Assembly: GCA_963844965.1 (NCBI GenBank)
Contig: CAWJQC010000009.1
Coordinates: 32,001 to 96,000, forward strand
Direction of reading: 5' to 3'
Length of the DNA stretch: 64,000 nucleotides
Source: an uncultured bacterium
GTDB taxonomy: Bacteria; Patescibacteriota; Minisyncoccia; UBA6257; 2-01-FULL-56-20
In this document: positions 5,809 through 19,489 of the stretch, in pieces
How the letters are laid out: every line of letters starts with the position of its first letter
Numbering within the stretch: the first letter of the stretch is position 1
Position numbers and translations under genes: made by a program
Notes under the pieces: model-generated
Database searches by the model: none
Seen by the model: only the letters and a program-made list of their open reading frames with translations
Told to the model about the DNA's origin: nothing

Positions 5809-6849
5809 TCAGTATTCTAAGACTTCGTGTGTCCGTGTCTCACCTAAAACGTGCATGAAATTGGACGCCAGAAGCATCTCGTATACCAGGAACGAAATAA
5901 GCCCGACGATAAGATAGAATATCACGCCGAGGATTCGGAGCACGATAAAGACCACAAGCACCCAGCCGATATCAAAAAAACTGCCGAAACGATCGCGCCA
6001 ACTGTTCAAGAACTTGATTATCACGTTATAGAGGACGTCGCTTGTCAGTTCGTCGCCGGTAATCGTTACGCCGAGACTCTTGCCCAGATTTTTTACCAGA
6101 TCGCCGGCGGTTTGCACTATGGCAGAATCCTGATCGGCGGCAGCCAGATTTTCAAATGTCGGATTATTTTTAAGCTCCACGCGCGCTATGCCTTCGGCAA
6201 ACTTTTCAAACGACGTGGAGGGGTTGATCTCCGGGTAGAAATTGGCCACAGATGCGGCAACCCAGTCGTAGAATTTCTGAAAATTGGCTTCCGAGACAAA
6301 CATGGTATTTTCATTCAATTGCGGCAAATAGAGGATGACAAACATCAGAAGAAGCGCCGTTGTCAATTTTTTAAGAACCGGTCTCGTCGTGCGGAAAAAA
6401 CTTATCTCCAAAACATTATCAAGTTCCCTGCGTCCAAATACGTCGCCGCAAAACATGAGCAAGAAGGTGAGCGCGGCGACGATGCCCAAAATTTTCAGAT
6501 TATAGGTATAGAACAATCCGAGGAGGGCAACTACCTCAAGGATAATGATCCAAAGCCGGTGCGCGAGTTCTTTCGTGAGTAGCATTGAGAGAACGGATAA
6601 AACCGAGAAAACGGTTACACCAAGTAAAAGCAGAGCGTAATTTACCGCTCCTACCAGGAACTGCCTGTAGAGGTATCCAACGCTGAACGCCGACGCGACC
6701 GTTAAGAGGTCCATAGCCAGCGGTTTATAAAAGTCGTGGCGCTTCACTGGGGCTTCGGGGTTAACCTGCCTGATCAGGTTTTGGGGAGACAATTTCGGTT
6801 CCATCCCGTTAGAAATAGGACGCGGACGAAAAAACTCCGTGCCTACCAT
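5809..6849 (-). CDS. Hypothetical polytopic membrane protein lying between dnaJ and dnaK
   Basis: 346-aa ORF with multiple predicted TM helices and no recognisable family. Confidence 0.55.
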   Translation of the reverse strand: MVGTEFFRPRPISNGMEPKLSPQNLIRQVNPEAPVKRHDFYKPLAMDLLTVASAFSVGYLYRQFLVGAVNYALLLLGVTVFSVLSVLSMLLTKELAHRLWIIILEVVALLGLFYTYNLKILGIVAALTFLLMFCGDVFGRRELDNVLEISFFRTTRPVLKKLTTALLLMFVILYLPQLNENTMFVSEANFQKFYDWVAASVANFYPEINPSTSFEKFAEGIARVELKNNPTFENLAAADQDSAIVQTAGDLVKNLGKSLGVTITGDELTSDVLYNVIIKFLNSWRDRFGSFFDIGWVLVVFIVLRILGVIFYLIVGLISFLVYEMLLASNFMHVLGETRTHEVLEY

Positions 6850-6940: not shown

Positions 6941-9079
6941 TTATGCGGGCGGCTGTTGAGGTTTTTCTTCGCCTCTGCCTTCGTTCCCTTTATTATAGAA
7001 CGACTGGCCGATTTTTTGAACTTCCGCCGAAAGGGCGGCACTCGCGGATTTTATCGCTTCCAGGTCGCCGCTATCCTTAACCTTCTTGAGCGCTTCAACT
7101 TTTTCGTTCACCGCGTTCTTGATATCAGCGCCGATCTTATCTCCGGCGTCCTTCAAAGATTTTTCGGCGAGGTAAACCAGCGCTTCCGCCTGGTTGCGCG
7201 TATCGGCAAGTTCCTTTTTCCGCGCGTCGTCTGCGGCGTGTTCGGCGGCTTCCTTGCGCAACTTTTCAATTTCATCTTTGGACAAGTGGGTCGTCGCCTC
7301 AATTTTCACCGATTGCGATTTTCCCGACGCCTTGTCCTTGGCCGAGACGGAGAGTATCCCGTTGGCGTCAATGTCAAAAGTCACTTCAACCTGCGGAACG
7401 CCGCGAGGCGCGGGCGGTATGCCGTCCAGAATGAACCGCGCCAGGGTTTTGTTGTCCGCCGCCATTGGCCGTTCTCCTTGAAGAACGTGAACTTCCACCG
7501 ACGTTTGCATGTCCGCGGCCGTGGAGAAAACCTGTGTCTTCGCCGTCGGCACGGTGGTGTTTTTCTGGATCATCGGCGTCGCCACGCCGCCCAACGTTTC
7601 AATGCTTAAAGTGAGCGGCGTTACGTCCAAAAGCAAGATGTCCTTCACGTCGCCCTGGAGAATTCCCGCCTGCACGGCGGCTCCCACGGCTACGACCTCA
7701 TCGGGATTGATCCCCTTGTGCGGCTCCTTTCCGAAAAGTTTTTTCACCGCTTCCACCATCGCCGGCATTCTCGTCTGCCCGCCGACCAGAACCACTTCGT
7801 TGATGTCCGACAGTTTGAACCCGGCGCCTTTCGGCGGCGGGGCGGTCACCGTCTCGCGCGTAAGTTCTATGGAACGAGCTATGTAATCCTCAACGAGATT
7901 CTCCAATTTGGCGCGGCTGAGTTTTATCAGAAAATGCTTTGGGCCGGAAGCGTCGGAAGTAATATACGGAAGATTAATTTCGGTTTCCGTGGAAGTAGAA
8001 AGCTCGTGCTTCGCGCGTTCAGCAGCTTCTTTGAGACGCTGGAGCGCGAGCGGGTCCTTTGATATATCAATGCCTTCCCGCTTCTTGTATTCCGCGACCA
8101 AATATTCGTTGATACGCTTGTCAAAATCGTCGCCGCCCAGGTGCGTGTCGCCGCCGGTCGCCTTCACCTCAACGGTGTCGTCGCCGACCTCAAGGACGGA
8201 GATGTCAAAAGTTCCGCCGCCGAAATCGTAGACAATGATTTTTTCGCTTTTTTGGCGGTTCATCCCGTAAGCCAGGGCAGCCGCAGTCGGCTCGTTAATG
8301 ATTCGCCTAACCTTGAATCCCGCGATTTCCCCGGAATTTTTTGTCGCCTGCCGCTGCGAATCGTCAAAGTAAGCGGGCACGGTGATAACCGCCTCTTCCA
8401 CTTTTTCTCCCAGTTTCGCCTCTGCGTCGGCTTTAAGTTTTCCTAACATCATCGCGGACATTTCTTCCGGCGAATACCATTTATCGCCCATTTTTATTTC
8501 AACACCGCCGGATGCGCTTTGCTGGATGTCATAAGGCAGCCATGCCTTGTCGCGCTGGACTTCGGGGTCGGTCCATTTGCGGCCGATAAGGCGCTTTACG
8601 GAAAAAATCGTGTTCTTGGGATTCGTAATCGCTTGCCGCTTAGCGAGCAATCCGACGAGCCGCTCGCCGTTCTTTGAAATCGCGACTATGGAAGGCGTCG
8701 TGCGGTTGCCCTCGGGATTCTCAAGTATGCGCGGCTCGCCGCCTTCCGTTACGGCAACCGCGGAATTAGTTGTTCCCAAGTCAATTCCAATTATTTTTTT
8801 TCCCGTAGATTCACTGGCCGTAAATTCTGCCTCAAACGCACCTTCCCCGCTCGGCAGTAAAAACGGTTTTTCTTTCACCAAAAGAAAATCCCAATCTCCG
8901 AAATCGCCACCTTTAAAAAGATTCTCTAACCCGGATTTAGAAAATATCCCGGAGGGAGCTTTCTTAATTAAAACTGTTAAAATCCTTTTGCCGCCACCAC
9001 CGGTGGCAATAGCATCTTTCAGAACTTCTACTTCTAGACCTTTATTCTTACAAAATTTTTCAATTTTATCGTAGGACAT
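6941..9079 (-). CDS. dnaK: Chaperone DnaK (Hsp70) with an N-terminal extension of about 95 aa
   Basis: Canonical Hsp70 motifs ([29 protein letters not shown], substrate-binding domain and lid) are preceded in frame by [19 protein letters not shown]...FLLVKEKP... There is no alternative start next to KIIGIDLGT. Confidence 0.9.
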
Positions 9080-9114
9080 TTTATTATTTATTTTAATTAT
9101 TTTTCTAATTCGAC

Positions 9115-10041
9115 TTATTGCAGTTCCTCGACTTTATAGCTCCACGTTACGTCGTTAAACACCCCACTACTGACGGTTAAAAGGTACGTACCCGGACCAA
9201 ACCCATTATAGGTGCCACTTACTGTTTGGCCATCGGCAACTGGAATATTGTGAACGAACGTACCAAAAGGAATGGGATTTGAAGCATCCAGCAAACTCTT
9301 GATTCTCACAAAATCCAGGTCTTGCTTATTTTCTTCGGCGGTTGTTGGCCATGTATTTGAAGTTACATGATTTGTCATGGTCCATTGTACCCTCCATCGC
9401 TGAGAGGTTATTTGGAACGGCGGCGGATATTTTCTGTCTGTATAAGCTCGTGGGTCAGTTGACCTCGCTATACTGTTACCACGAGAAATCTCGACCCATA
9501 TCCCTGCTTGCGGGGTTGTAGACTGGGATATTACTTTATAAGTGGAGTCATCGGTAATTAGTATTGGTGTCGTTACAGATAAATTCGCTATTGTTTGGGA
9601 TGTATAGGAACTCGGATCACGCAAAGCATTGCCGTTATCGCTGCCAAGGGACCCCAAATACGTACCATTGAAAGAAATTTTATTACCGGGCATCAAATTC
9701 AAATTGTTGACTGTTTTAGGCAGGATGAAAGCAACTGCAGTATTACCTTGACTATCTTTAAGAACGAGACAGCAGTTCATCTCCATGCTTTGTATTGTGC
9801 CCTCGAATTGAGATGAATTCTCGGATGACAAATCTTGGCCAGAAAATTGTTCGATGGGAGATTGTTGCGTTGAGGCCAGAGGTGTTTTTGTCGTGGACGA
9901 TGCGGTTTGCAACTGATTTGTAGGCGTCGGAGATAAGGGCGGAGGTATTGCCACCGGAGTCTGGTTGTACAGTAGCCCGCCAGTTATAGCCACAACGAAA
10001 ATCGCACCGATTACTATAGACCATTTATATTTTGTCCACAT
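9115..10041 (-). CDS. Hypothetical membrane-anchored extracytoplasmic protein lying between dnaK and grpE
   Basis: 308-aa ORF with an N-terminal TM helix, a Pro/Thr/Ser-rich linker and a beta-rich C-terminus. Confidence 0.5.
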
Positions 10042-10064
10042 AGTATTTTTAAATGATAATCTAT

Positions 10065-10817
10065 TTACTTTCGCTTAAATTGAATTGACGGGCCAACTTC
10101 GTTGTGCTCCGAAAATCCGACCACGCGCCAGTCTTTAAATTGTGCCGCATCGAAAACATTTTTTATCTTCTCAAAAGAATCTGAAACAGAAAGCTCTAAC
10201 GGGACAGATAGAATTGACTTGTCATTAGTCCAAAGTGGATAAGGTGTCGTACGTTTAATGACTAAATTATGGCTTTTGCAAAATTCTTCAATCTCTTGAA
10301 CGTTGCCCTTGCTAACTTTAACCCTCGCCGGCCTTAATATTTTATCATAAATTCTGTAGCCGGGCTCTATTTCTTCCAAAACGGTCCCTTCTGGCTTATC
10401 GGATTCGGCGGCGGCAACCGCTTCGGCGGACGACGGGTCAAATTTGTCGCCGACCTTCACCTCAATCCGTTCCACGCCGCGCTTTCGCAAAATATCCTCT
10501 ATCTGCGTTCTAATCATATAAATTCCCTTATCCACAGAGCCGGATTTTTCCATAGCTCTCAATCCCAGGTCAAAATTATCAATAATCGCGATCAAATCTC
10601 TTATGAGTTCTACACTGCCGTAGCGCGCGATATCTTCCAAACGCTGCATTTCTTCCTTTTTATAGTTAATGAAGTCCGCTTTCGCTCTCTGCCAGCCGGC
10701 GAGATACTCAGCTTTTTCTTTCTCGCATTTCTCTAGTTTTTCTTTCAATTCTTTGACTTCGCCGCTGTCCGCGCCGCTTGCTTCCGAATTTTTCTTTTTA
10801 TCTTCTTCGTCTCCCAT
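10065..10817 (-). CDS. grpE: Nucleotide exchange factor GrpE with a C-terminal extension of about 80 aa
   Basis: GrpE coiled-coil and beta-sheet core (…AEYLAGWQRAKADFINYKKEE…, …IRTQIEDILRKRGVERIE…EAVAAAES…) followed by an extra domain EIEEFCKSHNLVIKR…FKDWRVVGFSEHN. Confidence 0.8.
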   Translation of the reverse strand: MGDEEDKKKNSEASGADSGEVKELKEKLEKCEKEKAEYLAGWQRAKADFINYKKEEMQRLEDIARYGSVELIRDLIAIIDNFDLGLRAMEKSGSVDKGIYMIRTQIEDILRKRGVERIEVKVGDKFDPSSAEAVAAAESDKPEGTVLEEIEPGYRIYDKILRPARVKVSKGNVQEIEEFCKSHNLVIKRTTPYPLWTNDKSILSVPLELSVSDSFEKIKNVFDAAQFKDWRVVGFSEHNEVGPSIQFKRK

Positions 10818-11446
10818 TATTTTTTATTGCTTAATTCTTTGAAAATACCCAGGACCTTTTTATAGTTCATTCTCTTCGGGCCGATAGCCAAAAGAAGAAC
10901 GCCGCCGCCGTTTGCCCCGTAGCTTCCCGAGATGACCGCCAAATCCCCACTTTTCGTCACCGGACTTTTCCTACCGATAAAGACCTGCGGCTCGGCGGAT
11001 TTTTTTAATTTTTTCTCCGCTCTGCCCAGTCGCTCGTCAAGCTCCGCGAAGTCGCGGACAATTTCTTTGATCGCGTCCGGCGTTTCCCACTCCGGCCGTT
11101 CCACGAGATTTTCAATCCCCTCTTTGTATATCTCGCCGCCTCCGCTCGCGACGCCCAAAAGTTCAAGTTCGTCCGAAAGGAATTCCGCGAGTCCCGCCAA
11201 GGCGTGCCTCGCGAACAAATTCCTCACGGACCACAAACCAAAAAACGATTCCTCCTCGGCAAGAATCCGATTGGCGAAAAATTCGTAACCGGCGTCGCTC
11301 GGGACCCTGCCGGCGGAGTGGTGTGGCTGTTCCAAAAACCCTTCGTTGGATAATTTCTCCAGTTCCAGCCGTATCATCGCCGGTTTAATGCCAAAATCGC
11401 AATGTTCGTAAAGCCAGCCGGAACTTATCGGCTCGTCTGAGTCGAC
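10817..11446 (-). CDS. hrcA: Heat-inducible repressor HrcA, 5'-truncated at the junction with the high-GC segment
   Basis: The ORF 10817..11377 ends with the HrcA C-terminus (LLLAIGPKRMNYKKVLGIF). In-frame translation upstream of the annotated Met continues HrcA (…DEPISSGWLYEHCDFGIKPAMIRLELEKLSNEGFLEQPHHSAGRVPSDAGYEFF). Homology is lost at about 11446, where GC content jumps. The first 20-25 aa of HrcA are missing. Confidence 0.7.
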   Translation of the reverse strand, partial: VDSDEPISSGWLYEHCDFGIKPAMIRLELEKLSNEGFLEQPHHSAGRVPSDAGYEFFANRILAEEESFFGLWSVRNLFARHALAGLAEFLSDELELLGVASGGGEIYKEGIENLVERPEWETPDAIKEIVRDFAELDERLGRAEKKLKKSAEPQVFIGRKSPVTKSGDLAVISGSYGANGGGVLLLAIGPKRMNYKKVLGIFKELSNKK

Positions 11447-13266
11447 AGCCGGCCGGAAATCGGCACCTGGAGCACAGCGGCAGCGCTACACATAGACACC
11501 AACGGCAACTCGATCTTCGATCCCGACAACCTCGATTTCACCAACCGCGACCTGGTCTACAGCTTCGGCTTCTCCACCGACAACATGTTCTCCGGCAACT
11601 TCAGCCCGATCGGGGCCGCAGCGGCCGACGGCTTCGACAAGCTGGCCGCCTACGGCAAGATCGGCACGCAATATCGTTGGATCGTCAACACCAATAACGA
11701 CGGCGTGCCGGACGATGGTGGTCAACGACCCGGCGAACATCAACGGCTTGCCGGTCGCCGGCAACTTCGACGGCAACGCCGCCAACGGCGACGAGGTCGG
11801 GCTGTTCGACGGCGCAACTGGTGGCTCGACACGAATCACGACTACAAAGTCAACACGAAAATCGTCAGCTCGTTGCGGGGTTATCCGATCGTGGGCGACT
11901 TCGACGGCGACCACAACTTCGACCTGGCGACCTACCAGGTCAACCCGGTCAACAAGTTCTTCTTCGAGTTGGAGCCGCTAGTGCCACGCCGGTGTTCAAG
12001 AGCATCGATGCCGCGAGCCAGTTCGGCTACATTGGCGTTCGCTCACGGCCGGTCGCGGCCGACATCGAGCGCGACGGCACGACCGACGTGGGGCTGTGGG
12101 TGCCGGACCGCACCGGCGCCACGGGCGACCACATCGGCGAATGGTCGTTCCTGCTCTCCAATTTCGTAGACGCAGCAAGGGCACGGTCAGTACGCTGGAC
12201 CATCAGTTTTCGCCGACGCCGTTGAGCACGACCTGCTTCGCCCGCTTCGGCAACGAGTTCCCTGCCGATGGTGGGTAATTTTGATCCGCCGCTGGCCAGC
12301 GTCAAGGCGGGGCCGGCGATTTCCGGCGTGGTGCTGACCGTTTCCGGGACGAAGCCGACGGTCACTTGGGCGGTGGACGCCGGCCGAGCATTGCCGCGGC
12401 GACGTTGTTGGTGGACGGCAAGGCGGTGGCGGTTTCCAAGCTATCGGGCAGCGCGACGCACGGCAGCTATTCCGCCGGCGCTGGCGGGGTTGAACCTGGC
12501 GGCGGGCAGTCACAGCTTTGTGATCAAGGCCACGGACTCGGCGGGCACGCCCGCCACGACGCAATGCACGGGCACGTTCGACGTCGTCGGGCCGACGATC
12601 AAGGGCGTGGCACTGTCGGTTGCGAAGGGCCTACTCACGTGGAACGCGGTTTCGCCGAACGGCATGGCCGGCGTTGCCCTGATGATCGACAACAAGTCGG
12701 TGTCGAAGATCGCGCTACGCCGTCGGAATTACGCTGGGACGATGGGTTTGCCGGGGATCGGCACCACAAGTACGTCATCACGGCCACCGACAAGACCGGC
12801 AAGAGCGTGACGCTAAGCGACAGTTTTGTCGTTACCGCCCCGACGATCAGCAACGTAGCGATAGCGGCTGCGAAGGGCTTGATCACGTGGACGGCTGCGG
12901 CTTCGCGGCGTGGCGAGTGTTGGTCTGACGATCGACGGCAAGCGAGTGTCGAACACAAGCGGTCCCAACGCGGCGGGGAACTGCTACGGGTTGGCGGGCA
13001 AGCTGCCGGCGGGCACGCACAAGTACGTCATCACGGTCACTGACAAGGGTGGCAAAGCGGTGACGCTTGGCGGTTCGTTCGTGGTGAGCAAGCCGTCCAA
13101 GGCTGTGCAGAGCACCGCGATATCGAGTGCAAGCCGGCTCTGCGTTGTCCGATTCGGCCAAGGTTGCCTGGCTTTACGATCTTGGCGGTTTGACCGGCAC
13201 ATCGTCGAGTACGACCAAAAAGAGCACGTCCGCCCAAGCCGCGGACACCGTTATTGCCCGCTACTG
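11447..13266 (+). pseudogene. High-GC FG-GAP / Ig-like repeat protein, 5'-truncated and fragmented across more than 8 frame changes
   Basis: Frames alternate (ORFs 11585, 11715, 11821, 12096, 12268, 12366 and 12910), each carrying real-looking repeat sequence (VAGNFDGN…, GDFDGDHNFDLATYQ…, KYVITATDKTGKSVTLSDSFVVTAPTISNVAIAAAKGLITW…). The reading frame is open back to the junction with no start codon. Confidence 0.5.
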
Positions 13267-13689
13267 AGCAGGGTTACAAGGATCGAGAAGCGGTTGAGGC
13301 GACAAGCGACATTGCCTTGTCGTAAGGATAGCATGCGTCGGGACGAGGGTTTCGAAATGGCACTATTTCGGGAGCGAACGCCTGGTCGCAGGATGGGTGC
13401 ATTTACTTACAGGATGTTTCGCCGTGAGAGTTCACCCGACAGGCGGTTGAGGATTTTTTTGAGGGTTGTGCCAACCATCTCCTGATTACCAATTGAGGTT
13501 TGGTGTTAAGAATAAGTGAAACTTGGCTCTCCGACTCGTCTGTATCGGGCGGGGATCGGCGAATCGGACGGGCCCGTCTGCCGGAGCCGTTGATCTTATA
13601 CCAGTCATTTAGAGTCGATCACCGCCGGCTCAGCCTTGCTCTGAGCCAGCCCAATAAGGGAGATTTCTGCCATGTGGTAACACCAAGCC

Positions 13690-16600
13690 ATGGGATTCCG
13701 TAACAACTCGCGACGTTCCTCCTCCGCCACGCGGCAGAAGTCGAAGCCATTCTCGATGCGAAACCGACACGCAGCATTTGAACCCCTCGAAGAGCGTCAG
13801 TTGCTGAGCGTCACGCTGACGGGCGTGCCGGATTGGGTCGCTAAGGGTACCGCCCCGATCGTTGCCGGCAACAGCGACAACGTTACGGGGATGACGCCCG
13901 CCACCAGCCTGGAAGTCGGCGCTGTGAACGCTCTGGCGGTCGACCCGACAAACACCAAGCATCTCTTTGCGGCCACCGTGAATGGCGGCATCTGGCAAAC
14001 CAACGACTTCACCGTGGCGAACCCGACCTGGACCACCAGCACGGATCTCATGCCGTCGCTGGCGATCAGCGCTATCGCCTTCAGCCCCACTAACAGCAGC
14101 GTCATCTATGCCGGAACGGGCAGCTACAGTTCCACGGGTGGCGGTGTGGGCGGGGCCGGCATGGGTGGCGGCTCTGTCGGGCTGTACAAGTCAATCAATG
14201 GCGGGGCCACCTGGCAGGTCATCGACCCGAATGGCATCTTCACCGGACTGCGCAGTCCGGCGAGTTGTCCCGAGACGCTTAACGGAGGCCAAACCGTCTT
14301 TGCGGCCGCGACCGATACGGCGGCCGGGAGCGGCGGCGTCTACCGCTCGGACGATGGCGGCGGCACCTGGACGCGGCTCTCGGGCGATAACGGCCTGCCC
14401 AACGCGGGCGTCACCGACCTGGTGGCTAATCCGGCCAACGCCAACCAGTTCTTCGCTGCGGTCGCCGGCGGATCCGGCGGCGCCGGCGGCACGGGCGGCA
14501 TCTTCAGCCTCGATCTATCGGTGAATACAACCTGGACGAACATTACGGGTAATATCAACACCATCAATCCCGGCGTGCTCAACAATGCGATCCGGGTGGA
14601 GTTGTCTGTCAGCATCGCCGGAGTGAATCCGATCTGGGCGAGCGTGATCAACAGCAGCGGCTTCTACGCCGACGTCTTCCGGGCGCCGAACGCCGCATCG
14701 CCCACATGGGCGGCCGTCGGACCCGGCGGTTTGCTTCCGGACGTTCTCCAAGGCAATCAGGGTGGCGTTCACGGCTCCATCGAGGCCGACCCCAACTCCG
14801 ACACGGTCGTGTACATCGGCGGCGATGCAAAGCAGACTGCCAGTCCCTTTAGCGGGTATCTTGCCCGAGGTGATTCCGGCACCAACACCTGAACCGGCAT
14901 GACCCCCGTCGATACCGTGACGGCGAACCCTGGCCTGACCGTCATCCCGACGGCTAATGGCGTCACCGCCGCCCCGCATCCGGACACCCGCAACCTGGTT
15001 TTTGCCTCTGGCGGAGTCCTGCTGGTATCGTGCGACGGCGGCGTCTACCAAGCCACAAACCCGACGGGGGCCGGGCCGGCGATGGCCTGGACTTCGATTA
15101 ACGGCACCCTCGAAGACAGCGAGTTTTACACGGTTTCCTATGACAACCGAAACACGGCAGCCACGGCCGACGATCTAATCGAGGGGGCCGCCCAGGACGA
15201 CAGCTCGAGTGAGCGGAACACGGCTGCCGTTTGGAACACCCAGACAGGCGGCGATGGCACCGTCGTGCTGGCTGACCCCATCAGCGACACACGCTATTTC
15301 TCGATGCAGAACTACTTCATGGGTAGTGTCATCGGCGGGGGCGGCGTCAATCGACCCGCCGGCACTGTCGCGGGCACGGGGGGCAAGGTTCTGAACGCGG
15401 CTAACGCCGGCACCAAGGCCGAGACGTTCCCCTTTACCCCCGCCTTCCAAATCAACCAGGGGGACATCGGCAGCGGGGCGGGCACGGCACGGGTTATCCT
15501 GGGGGGCAATCAGACGCTCTATGTCTCCAGCGACCAGGCAGCCAACTACACCTCGATCGGCGGCACAACTGCAAATAACCCCGACCCCGTGACCAACCTA
15601 ACCGCCCGGGTGATCACGATCGCGTTTGGTGCGGCGACCAATACGAATGCCTGCTACGTCGCTATGTCCGACGGCAACGTCACCAAGACGACGGACATCA
15701 CCACTGCCGGCGGTGGTTTCAGCCTCACGACCTTCCTTGCGACGGCCGGCGGTGAGGATGGCGCAGGGTATGGCGATCGATCCCAACGACGCGAATACGG
15801 TCTACGTAATCACTCTGACGCGCAGCCTGCGTGACCACGGACGGCGGCACTACGTGGGCCAACATCACGGACAACCTGGCATCCCTGTTCACTCCGGGCT
15901 TTGCCAGCAACGTGAGTCCGAGTCAGGAGCGGGGGATCACCCTGTTCAACAACGGCACGGCAACGAAGGCCGACGACGTGCTGTTGATCGGCGGTCCAGG
16001 CGGTGTCTTTCGGCGTCTGGCCGCATCGCCCCCGGGTGGCATTTGGAGCCAATATGGCGTTGATTTGCCCAACGTGCTGGTCGACAGTCTGCAATATGAC
16101 CAACTGAGCGATACGCTTCTGGCTGGCACTTTTGGCCGCGGCGACTGGACGGTTAGCAGCGTTGCCACCACAATTAACGCCGCTGGCGTGATGGTGATCT
16201 GCGGCGACCAGGATTTTGCCAACGAAGACGACACCTTTAAGCTGGTCCGCGACCCCGGCGATCCGTTGCTGTTGGATGTGTTTCAGAACAACACCACCAC
16301 TACCCCCGACTTCCAAGTGCCGTTGGCGGTGGTCCAGCAGATCGACGTCTTCGCCGCCGGCGGCAACGACAACTTGATTGTTGACAGCAGCAACGGCCTG
16401 ATCAGCGTCGCCGGCGGCATTCGTTACGACGCCGATCACGGCTGCCCGGGCGACACAGCCGCCGGAATCGGCGGTTTCGACCGCCTCACCCTCACCCAGA
16501 ATCTGACGGGTGGCCCCGCCATCGCTTCCGATCAATTGGCGCCGGGTGCCACCCCGGGCGACGGCATCAGCACCGTCAACGACACGGCCGGCAACGTCCA

Positions 16601-19223
16601 GACGATTGATTTCCAGTACCTCGAACCGGTTGTCGATAACGTCCCCTCGCCGACGTTCGATATCGCCGCCGTCCCCGGATTGGCGAGTCTGCTGGACGCC
16701 GACAACGCCATCGACTATACGGCCAGCCAGATTCTGCTTACCGGCGGCCGCGTGACGATCGACAATTTCGAGCCGATCGAGTTCGAGAACAAGGTCACCT
16801 TGGTCATCGACGCCGGGGCCGGCAGTGATGCGATCAATCTGAACAATCCCACCACGCCCACCGGCCTGGCGGCCATCACCGTCAACGGTGGCGACCCGTC
16901 GCTCGCCGATACGATCACCGTCAACGGCATCAAGGGGGCTACGGACCATTTCGTGGTGCTGCCCACGGCCGCAGGCAACGGAAACATTTTCGACACCGAC
17001 ACAGCGAGCGCCAAATATCGCCCCCGAGGTTCACTATTCCGGCATGCAAGGGGTCAACGTCGTGGGCCAAAACGCGGATGCGGACGCCTTGGCGGACGGA
17101 GGAACTGTGGGCGACGACTCGTTCACCTATAATCCTGGCACGACCGCGTCTTCCGGAGAGATTCACGGTTTCAACAGCGGTTTCTCCTTTGGGGCCTTGA
17201 CCTTTAACGGAATCACCGGCTGGGTCACGATGGGATCGCCTTTGGTGAACCTTACCGCAGGTTCGGCGACCGGCCTCCTCGTCCTCGGCGGCCACGACAC
17301 GGTGGTCATCGACGGGACGGCGGCTGACGATTCCTTCAATTGGGACAATTCTCTTGTATTCCTGCAGGTGCGAGTGGACACTGGCGGCGACCTTCACACC
17401 CCCATCGTCCTGGCCGGCGACCAAATCGTTGGATACGTTTCACACGTCATTGTGCAGGGGCTCGACGGCAACGACACGTTCAATGTGATTCCTGGGGGGG
17501 CCCCTGGCAGTGACTTGTTCGACATCCGCATCGAAGGAGGGGATTCCGATAGCTTTACCGACACACTAAACCTCAGCGGCGCCGTCGGCCCGGTGGGGGT
17601 GAATCTGGCCGACAGCACCGTGCCCTCCGACACCTCGATAACCGGCTACGGCAGCACCGTCACGCTCACCGGCGTCGAGTTGGTCCACATGGATGTCAAC
17701 GGCACAAACCCTGACGGTCACGGGCACGGCGGGCGCGGACCAGTTCAACTTCACGCCCACGGCGCTGGGCGTCGGCAGTTTCAAGGTCACGACCACCGGC
17801 GCCATCGTCGAGACCAGCCCGCAATTCACCTATACCGGCGTGGCGGCCACGGGCGTCACGCTCAACGGCGGTACGGGCGGATTCGACGTGCTGGGACTGA
17901 CGGCCACGGCCGGCAACGACACGATCAACGCCGTGCAGACCGACGCCACGCATTTGAGCTTCACCCTCAACGCGTTCACGCAGCCTTTCATTTTCGCCAC
18001 GCCGGCTTCGGTGCCAGGGGTCAACATCTACGCCGGCGCCGGCGATGACTTGATTCGCGTGAGCGTGACCAATGCGCTGGAAAGCACCACGCCGAGCGCC
18101 AGCCTGCGGTTCACGGTCGACGGCGGCGAGCCCAATGCCAGCGATCGGCTGCTCGTGAACGACGACGGCATTGGCGACCTGACTATCCTTCGCCAGGGCC
18201 CCGATGATCGAAGCGGCTCGGTGACGGTGGGCGTTCTGAATCCCGTTGTCTATGAAAACGTCGAGCGTCTCGACGTCACGCCGCTTAATCCCATCACCGG
18301 TGGGACCGGCACTGACGGCAACGGCCGCATCTTCGTCATGCATCAGAATCCGTTCGAGACCAACGACAGCCTCGCGAACGCACGGCGCAGATCGAGCGGC
18401 TGGCCGATTCGCCGACCAGCCCCACGATCGACCCGGCCGGCCTCAATACCCCTCCGTTTACGGTCAGCGGCGACGAAGATTGGTACGTCTTCCGTCCCAA
18501 GTTCACCACGGACTACCAAGTCCGCATCCTGTTCCATCGCATCGTGGCTTTGGCGAACGGCCGGCCTGGCCTGCCGGGCACCGGCGACTTGTCGCTCGAC
18601 ATCTACGACGCCAACGGGGCGTTGATCGTCTCCGGCGTGGCCGATGGAAACGGCGACAACCGCACGGCCATTTTCGGGGCCACGCCCACCGTGGCACAGT
18701 TCGCCACGATCTATATCCGCGTCAAAGGCGGAGAAGCGCCAGCTGGCGCCTCGGTCAATCTCTACGACTTCGACAACATCACCGCATTGACGTTCCCGGT
18801 GCCACCGGGGGTCGGCAACGTGGACGTGTTCGGTCCCCAGGTCACCGGCGTGGCCATCACCACCGCGCCGGCCTACAACTTGTTCGATCCCAAGGAATTC
18901 ACACATGGCGGCCTGGGCCCGACGCCATTGGTAAACGGCCTGACCATCAGTTTCAAGGATTTACCGGCACGCACCCCGGGCTTCGTCTATCCGGCCCTCG
19001 ATCCGGCCACGGCCAGCACCCGGGCACTTATGTGGTCAAGGGAGATGCCAACGGCATCGTTCAGATCTCGCAGATCATCGTGACCAACAACCCGCCGGCG
19101 GTGGGACAGGTGCCCACGGCGACGGTCCAACTGGTTTTCGCCCAGCCGTTGCCCGACGATCGCTTCACGTTGACGATCAACGACAATCTGCTCGATCCGG
19201 CCACCGCGTCTATAAATCCCTGA
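13690..19223 (+). pseudogene. Giant BNR/Asp-box repeat extracellular protein with a Planctomycetes-type N-terminus; contains 1 in-frame TGA and at least 4 frame changes
   Basis: The N-terminus MGFRNNS…MRNRHAAFEPLEERQLLSV matches the planctomycete 'LExLExRxLLS' signal-anchor motif. It has repeated SxDxGxTW boxes (SINGGATWQV, SDDGGGTWTR, TTDGGTTWANI). ORFs 13690, 14899, 15831, 16888, 17693 and 18246 are colinear pieces of one gene. Confidence 0.55.
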
Positions 19224-19275
19224 ACCGCCGCCTCCAAAATTTTCTGCGTTCTTTCCGTAAACATGGAGTAATCGC

Positions 19276-19346: not shown

Positions 19347-19489
19347 GCGAACACTCCGAATTATAGTCCTATTGGCAATCTTGTCAAGCGATTGCTAATA
19401 CTTGACAGAAATATAATTCCATGCTAACATTACATCAGTACTTGCCCGAACGTGTTTGATGTTGGGCAAGAGAAAAGGAGAAGGGCGAC

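Follow-up and report, generated by a model that had tools for sequence, protein, structure and literature searches.

Copies of an orphan domain on DnaK and GrpE in the chaperone operon of an uncultured Parcubacteria-type bacterium

Introduction

Hsp70 systems usually diversify via their J-domain proteins and, in eukaryotes, also via modular exchange factors. To our knowledge, the domain architecture of bacterial DnaK and GrpE is regarded as invariant. A 64,000-nucleotide stretch of DNA from an uncultured bacterium (GenBank assembly GCA_963844965.1, contig CAWJQC010000009.1, positions 32,001 to 96,000; here called the window) therefore raises a question, because both its DnaK and its GrpE are longer than expected, the former at the N-terminus and the latter at the C-terminus. 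Are the two additions related, are the fusions real, where did they come from and what might they do for the chaperone cycle? An earlier reading of the letters alone, referred to below as the original prediction, had proposed that a homologous accessory domain of about 75 aa is fused to both proteins. We describe here the two copies of this domain, termed X, with K-X standing for the copy on DnaK and E-X for the copy on GrpE, and the accessory DNA in which they are found.

Results

Two related extensions on otherwise canonical chaperones

The features that matter for the argument are the following, in positions of the window.

10065-10817, minus strand: grpE, 250 aa
10308..10817, minus strand: grpE core, canonical nucleotide-exchange factor, residues 1-170
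10068..10307, minus strand: E-X, the X copy on the GrpE C-terminus, residues 171-250 (stop codon 10065-10067)
9115-10041, minus strand: open reading frame ORF308, 308 aa
9080..9114, minus strand: AT-rich leader of 35 nt, from the ORF308 stop to the ATG of X-dnaK
6941-9079, minus strand: dnaK, 712 aa
8798..9079, minus strand: K-X, the X copy on the DnaK N-terminus, residues 1-94
8794..8801, minus strand: run of eight A (A8) at the X/DnaK junction, codons GGA AAA AAA ATA
6941..8797, minus strand: dnaK core, residues 95-712, stop codon included

Outside the extensions both proteins are conventional. DnaK is a full-length Hsp70 with nucleotide- and substrate-binding domains that scores above the curated cutoffs (NF001413, 924 bits, cutoff 648; TIGR02350, 902 bits, cutoff 822.55), and PF00012 is matched with 807.7 bits over profile positions 1-598 of 599. 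This match covers residues 96-695, and the NCBIfam DnaK equivalog begins at residue 94/95. The dnaK core is 93% identical to the 620-aa DnaK of the closest relative, locus L002. GrpE belongs to PF01025 (127.9 bits, gathering cutoff 25.8, profile positions 8-165 of 165, residues 16-170); the NCBIfam GrpE equivalogs also match and end at residue 169-172, but score under their strict per-model cutoffs. The grpE core is 68-82% identical to relatives that are 161-179 aa long. With PF00012 beginning at residue 96 of DnaK and PF01025 ending at residue 170 of GrpE, the original prediction was right that neither extension is part of the canonical protein.

The extensions, 94 aa on DnaK and 80 aa on GrpE, are related to each other. 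Pairwise BLASTP gives 18/62 identities with an expect value (E) of 7e-7, and the identity of K-X and E-X is 28%. The Smith-Waterman score of the pair is 63, while shuffled sequences have a mean of 23.4 (standard deviation 4.2) and 0 of 20,000 shuffles reach 63; a Gumbel fit puts P at about 2.4e-6. When the 64-kb window was searched by tblastn in six frames, E-X was the sole non-self match (E 0.001), and the next hit had an E of 0.1. All three aligned segments that the original prediction had quoted were reproduced, and its shared domain stands; the size of about 75 aa does not, in view of the 94 and 80 aa given above.

Both extensions behave as coding DNA. In shuffles, a frame of this length stays open at a frequency of 0.0006 (K-X) and 0.0024 (E-X). 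Both copies lie in DNA of about 40% G+C (GC), and both alternative frames of the extensions are stop-rich. As had been predicted, the DnaK extension is in frame and has no nearby alternative start: there is no in-frame ATG, GTG or TTG from codon 68 to the KIIGIDLG motif. The GrpE extension has no in-frame start ahead of codon 62, and therefore neither domain can be translated on its own. E-X starts right after the natural end of GrpE (...RPARVKVSKG), and relatives terminate 1-8 codons further on.

The fusions are unlikely to be artefacts

A homopolymer at a gene junction calls for caution, and the original prediction had itself named an indel in this run as a possible source of an artificial fusion. 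The true junction might be A9, with a separate X gene and a GTG-started DnaK, or the grpE stop might have been lost by an assembly error. The A9 version indeed yields a tidy two-gene arrangement, a 100-aa separate X ending in ...KKNNWN* and a GTG in frame with a DnaK that starts VNLREKKIIGID; the A7 version runs into an immediate stop. However, the A8 run is not specific to this assembly. An independent Logan contig from another run (L001, run ERR10755942, 1823 bp) is 99.7% identical to window positions 8124-9948 and differs from it by three substitutions and two indels, all of them away from A8; the run itself, the X-DnaK junction and the encoded K-X sequence are identical. A second, more distant genome (GCA_041643115.1, here L006) has X fused in frame to DnaK as well, through a junction, SKGKSRGKIIGID (also written ...IQFSKGKSRGKIIGID), that contains neither an A-run nor any other homopolymer. 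Since ORF308 and X-DnaK also occur in this second genome, the fusion is an old, maintained allele and not an error. The loss of the original dnaK start can be seen in an alignment with four relatives, where ACG occupies the position of the dnaK ATG (ACG GGA AAA AAA ATA ATT beneath ATG NNN AAA ATN ATN), and there is no conserved internal start in the X-DnaK of the window or of L006. The GrpE-X junction is covered by one assembly, as L001 ends at window position 9948, and this single coverage is the other point in favor of an artefact. Against it, no homopolymer is present at this junction, E-X lacks its own start codon, and a misassembly cannot make a paralogue at 28% identity. Taken together, we regard an artefact as very improbable.

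The A8 run is in the A_AAA_AAA register that is classical for slippery sites. After a +1 slip, or in an A7 transcript, translation would stop immediately, and after a -1 slip or in an A9 transcript X would end four codons on; the A9 transcript would also bring the GTG into frame with DnaK. When the run was checked as a slippage site, the register was found to fit, no stimulatory element was detected, and the run is absent from L006.

X is rare and patchily distributed

The DnaK of L006 has 716 aa, and over the first 96 of them its identity to K-X is 41% (E 4e-17). Apart from this protein X was not found on the orthologues, and the idea of a lineage-specific extension did not survive the comparison with related genomes of the Candidate Phyla Radiation (CPR). 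Ten related loci are without X, and a canonical MPK start is seen on two near-identical DnaK cores (identity of at least 90%). In the loci L003, L004, L005 and L007-L011, grpE is directly followed by a dnaK of 616-644 aa, and the closest relative L002 (DnaK 93%, DnaJ 83% and HrcA 80% identical) has a canonical 620-aa DnaK. The DnaK of L006 groups at 90% identity or more with a 130-aa N-terminal fragment that begins MPKILGIDLG. Thus, DnaK cores at least 90% identical occur with and without X in both lineages. For GrpE, the best 120 of 1388 relatives were examined, and 120/120 lack a C-terminal extension (147-199 aa, at most 69% query coverage). X is therefore carried on DnaK by two metagenome-derived genomes, and the GrpE copy is present in the window genome only.

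Wider searches added no further copies. An X profile detected no remnant in any other fetched locus, degenerate-pattern scans of DNA from GTDB representatives, JGI metagenomes and IMG/VR yielded no more X copies, and tblastn of X against phage genomes gave nothing. A hidden Markov model (HMM) built from the two copies returned four matches among 1.84 billion representatives, each made of 5-6 short stretches; the two that were retrieved are long repetitive proteins, and we treat all four as spurious. These protein searches see cluster representatives only, and both X-DnaKs sit behind representatives without X. A word-indexed protein search with the DnaK extension had no match, the query itself included, and the 712-aa DnaK is present in the collection but behind a 620-aa cluster representative that lacks the extension. 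The HMM search likewise missed the DnaK of L006, and hence its negative outcome excludes free-standing homologues, not fused ones. This points to a general problem: terminal add-on domains on highly conserved proteins are systematically under-detected in clustered databases.

X sits in a low-GC cassette between grpE and dnaK

The original prediction was silent on ORF308, the gene that lies between the two X copies. The grpE-dnaK spacer normally measures 64-168 bp, and in the window about 1.5 kb of low-GC accessory DNA is found there. ORF308 and X form a cassette that is inserted into this spacer and is not ancestral, so that X sits together with a membrane-anchored ORF. The GC content of K-X is 40% in the window and 35% in L006, that of E-X is 39% (L006 is without E-X), and that of ORF308 is 44%, with 42% for ORF289 of L006. 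The grpE core has 46% in the window and 51% in L006, the dnaK core 55% and 58%, respectively. The third-position G+C is about 35% in X versus 64-72% in the dnaK core, within one ORF.

ORF308 has a transmembrane anchor at its N-terminus, followed by a linker rich in Pro, Ser and Thr and by a beta-rich domain without family. It has no Pfam, PHROG, PADLOC or NCBIfam match, and a single homologue, P0131 (55% identity, 95% coverage), was found in 5.8 billion representative sequences. P0131 is placed in the grpE-dnaK slot of L006, directly upstream of X-dnaK. An AlphaFold2 (AF2) model calculated with this single homologue has a predicted local distance difference test score (pLDDT) of 42 and is unusable. 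The short N-terminus MW(T/A)KYKW is conserved, and about 7 residues are predicted to be cytoplasmic.

Conservation in the cassette is highest in the block that runs from the end of ORF308 through the leader into the first codons of X and is 87-97% identical between the window and L006. Within it the leader (9080-9114; L006 2254-2288) is identical at 34/35 positions, and the flanking proteins are 41-55% identical. This conserved block speaks for the ATG at 9079 as a start that is used and constrained. The leader may be a translation-initiation or a promoter element. No CIRCE (controlling inverted repeat of chaperone expression) lies directly upstream of X-dnaK, and promoter-like matches occur there only as expected in AT-rich DNA.

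Because the X-carrying and X-free DnaK cores are at least 90% identical, recombination between related strains probably moves or removes the cassette. L002 has in its grpE-dnaK spacer a Lys/Glu-rich 97-aa ORF (7744-8037). This ORF was considered as a relative of X and rejected, since it shows no likeness on reading and the X profile is silent in L002. As it is unrelated, accessory genes seem to enter this spacer repeatedly. In L001 two 1-bp deletions lie inside ORF308 (L001 positions ~296 and ~427, window ~9652 and ~9520). The window ORF308 aligns end to end with P0131 and is therefore the intact version; the deletions reflect either decay of ORF308 in that population or errors of the Logan contig.

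X is predicted to be a small two-layer sandwich

With the two window copies as input, AF2 returned an alpha-beta-beta-alpha-beta-beta fold with a pLDDT of 78.9 and a predicted template modeling score (pTM) of 0.72. The fourth beta strand of the model lies at DnaK residues 81-88, and most of the seeming linker is therefore part of the fold. X is thus predicted to be a domain of about 85 aa that forms a two-layer (alpha-beta-beta)x2 sandwich. The residues that are invariant among the three X copies mostly belong to the hydrophobic core, with one Cys in helix 1 in addition. X is an orphan domain. For the three sequences the best Pfam match has an E of 0.14 and the best PHROGs match 0.043, both at chance level, and NCBIfam and PADLOC gave none. 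A Foldseek search of the X model against PDB and BFVD had no match at E <= 0.001, only generic folds. Among the weak fold neighbors are PilO, GspL and GspM, whose periplasmic (alpha-beta-beta)x2 ferredoxin-like domains are known dimerization modules. The likeness of X to these domains is a weak fold match that is compatible with dimerization and not diagnostic of it. Two other assignments were discarded. A cellobiose-type phosphotransferase system (PTS) IIB domain was the sole PDB sequence match (2l2q_A, E 0.019, X residues 1-55), and the AF2 topology has hairpins, not the Rossmann-like alternation of beta and alpha elements. A HicA-like domain with a fold like that of double-stranded RNA-binding domains was dropped on account of the alpha-beta-beta-alpha-beta-beta topology and the missing Pfam match.

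Constraint and copy history of X

Between the window and L006, X is 36-41% identical with an intact frame, and the DnaK core is 83% identical. At four-fold degenerate sites, the identity of the dnaK core is 43%, where about 28% would be random by arithmetic from third-position base frequencies. Because X retains 36-41% identity while silent sites are near random, it is under moderate purifying selection.

E-X sits upstream of ORF308 and is a strongly diverged second X. We infer that the GrpE copy arose by duplication of X. Between the X copies of the window only short chance matches are found at the DNA level, and the duplication is therefore old at the nucleotide level. The C-terminal strand of the L006 copy (IRIQFSKGK) resembles that of the GrpE copy (SIQFKRK), with a shared IQF strand. 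E-X is much closer to K-X of its own genome (P 2.6e-6) than to the L006 copy, to which its similarity is not significant alone (P 0.16). The duplication may have taken place in the lineage of the window and been followed by fast divergence, or it may be older, with the second copy lost later by L006. The proposal that a duplicated mini-gene became fused to each protein fits the data.

The operon and a split hrcA

The genes belong to a canonical operon, hrcA-grpE-dnaK-(membrane ORF)-dnaJ, from a CPR bacterium of the Parcubacteria type. The named relatives of GrpE come from Liptonbacteria, Ryanbacteria and Paceibacterota, which places the host among the Parcubacteria/Paceibacteria-type CPR. The neighboring genes are these:

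10817-11440, minus strand: hrcA (3' part), HrcA from residue ~20
5809-6849, minus strand: hydrophobic conserved ORF without family, 346 aa
4584-5720, minus strand: dnaJ, 378 aa

An ORF of 331-346 aa without Pfam family is found between dnaK and dnaJ in the window, L002, L005, L006, L007 and L008/L009. It sometimes overlaps the 3' end of dnaK, and in the window it has many hydrophobic stretches. Its place after dnaK is taken by a 403-aa ORF in L010 and L011. The ORF of 331-346 aa seems to belong to the chaperone operon as a lineage-specific component.

The hrcA gene, which encodes a repressor and stands at the head of the operon, is in two fragments on the minus strand (10817-11440 and 19208-19264), and between them, after codon 19, lies an island of 7,767 bp (11441-19207). 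When joined, the halves have the exact length of L002 HrcA, and on its far side the gene order agrees again with that of L002 (ORF150, corA, cysS, dnaB, recR). The GC content is 58-66% in the island and about 47% in the genome. The island shows a 3-bp GTC at both junctions and has no terminal inverted repeats and no Pfam matches; its plus strand reads like frameshift-broken repeats of the FG-GAP/VCBS type. It may be genuine, or it may have been introduced by the assembly. A CIRCE-like inverted repeat, TTGGCAATC-N9-GATTGCTAA, lies at 19372-19398, upstream of the detached 5' end of hrcA, and matches an element at the equivalent place in L002. As this repeat lies beyond the island, the operator of the operon is now 7.8 kb away from grpE and dnaK.

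Discussion

Why should DnaK and its exchange factor carry the same small domain? The explanation that we favor has two parts, an account of the anatomy and evolution of the locus and a mechanism in which X tethers the two proteins, and as a combination we put it at a probability of about 60%. The anatomical and evolutionary account is held with high confidence. It implies a route of domain accretion in which a cassette enters an operon spacer, a start or stop codon is then lost, and a duplication follows. The mechanism is much more tentative. Self-association is the simplest explanation for one small domain on both partners, and X may thus be a putative self-associating module, the GrpE copy pairing with the DnaK copy. 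Such pairing would hold the GrpE dimer beside the nucleotide-binding domain of DnaK, or would take both proteins to one site, and tethering would make the exchange factor locally more concentrated. In L006, where X is on DnaK alone, it would dimerize DnaK or bind another partner. We suggest this self-association, with tethering or co-localization of the GrpE dimer and DnaK, as a possible function that is more doubtful than the anatomy. In a stricter version, a self-associating orphan domain was duplicated from DnaK onto GrpE and the two copies pair as a specific heterodimer, which would tether the GrpE dimer permanently to the nucleotide-binding domain of DnaK. Hsp70 and its exchange factor would then be a genetically hard-wired complex in a bacterium with a minimal genome, and slippage at A8 might yield free X or a DnaK without X. 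This version appears unlikely.

Several observations weigh against a tether. Binding of X to X is purely our inference. In L006 the domain is on DnaK only, and hence a GrpE tether cannot have been its original role. X is dispensable, because close strains do without it, and the finding is confined to few genomes, the two metagenome-derived ones, with the GrpE fusion known from a single assembly. E-X and the L006 copy are, alone, not significantly similar. That close strains do without X, and that L006 has it on DnaK alone, would also suit a neutral passenger, the remnant of a small cassette gene that was joined to dnaK by loss of a start and to grpE by loss of a stop, and that the ends of the two proteins tolerate without any role in the chaperone cycle. 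The patchy distribution among DnaK cores at least 90% identical in both lineages agrees with a passenger, and so do the low-GC, foreign-looking composition, the lack of homologues in the large searches and the conservation of X at 36-41% against 83% for the DnaK core. A mere remnant, however, would hardly have stayed open and foldable at 41% identity while silent sites drifted to near randomness. Also the second copy has remained open (chance 0.0024) with its hydrophobic core positions kept, and nowhere is the cassette better conserved than in the leader ahead of X. A tolerated passenger is a possibility to be taken seriously, and we consider it and the tether about equally likely.

X might instead be tied to ORF308 and recruit DnaK, and here GrpE too, to the membrane or to nascent ORF308, and thus serve as a client or localization module. 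ORF308 and X-DnaK are found together and in the same order in both genomes with X, the end of ORF308, the leader and the X start form one block that is 87-97% identical, and the MW(T/A)KYKW N-terminus of ORF308 is conserved. However, just about 7 residues of ORF308 are predicted to be cytoplasmic, ORF308 has no family match and its AF2 model failed, and co-occurrence in two genomes could be mere co-insertion. We consider such a link improbable. If, as in the tether, the X copies do bind each other, the locus would be a natural experiment in tethering an exchange factor to Hsp70.

In many respects the locus agrees with the canonical DnaK-GrpE pair and the hrcA-grpE-dnaK-dnaJ operon under control of CIRCE and HrcA: both cores are full-length, and the gene order is like that of the relatives. 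The canonical pair is without extra domains, whereas here a domain that is predicted to fold is found on the DnaK N-terminus and another one on the GrpE C-terminus, and a gene for a membrane protein separates grpE and dnaK. In the part of a 2021 review of bacterial Hsp70 machines that is relevant here, one Hsp70 extension is mentioned, an N-terminal stretch of about 17 residues on HscA whose significance is unknown (PMC8215388). If X is a tether, its closest analogue, by function only, would be DafA of Thermus thermophilus. The gene for DafA, a small polypeptide, lies in the dnaK operon. The protein is lineage-restricted and forms a stable DnaK3-DnaJ3-DafA3 complex, from which substrate expels DafA (PMC3727329). 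In contrast to X, which is covalently fused to both partners, DafA is free-standing and bridges DnaK to DnaJ and not to GrpE. Eukaryotic nucleotide-exchange factors of the BAG family combine an exchange-factor core with an add-on, such as a ubiquitin-like (Ubl) domain or a membrane anchor, that is thought to localize or couple them. They are modular like GrpE-X; however, the core folds are unrelated and the add-on is not duplicated on Hsp70. The families of exchange factors are treated in a review (PMC4753570), and Snl1 is described as a BAG-domain protein anchored in the endoplasmic reticulum (PMC3962485). Against this background, a canonical DnaK and a canonical GrpE that each carry a copy of an orphan domain are a new variant of a known system.

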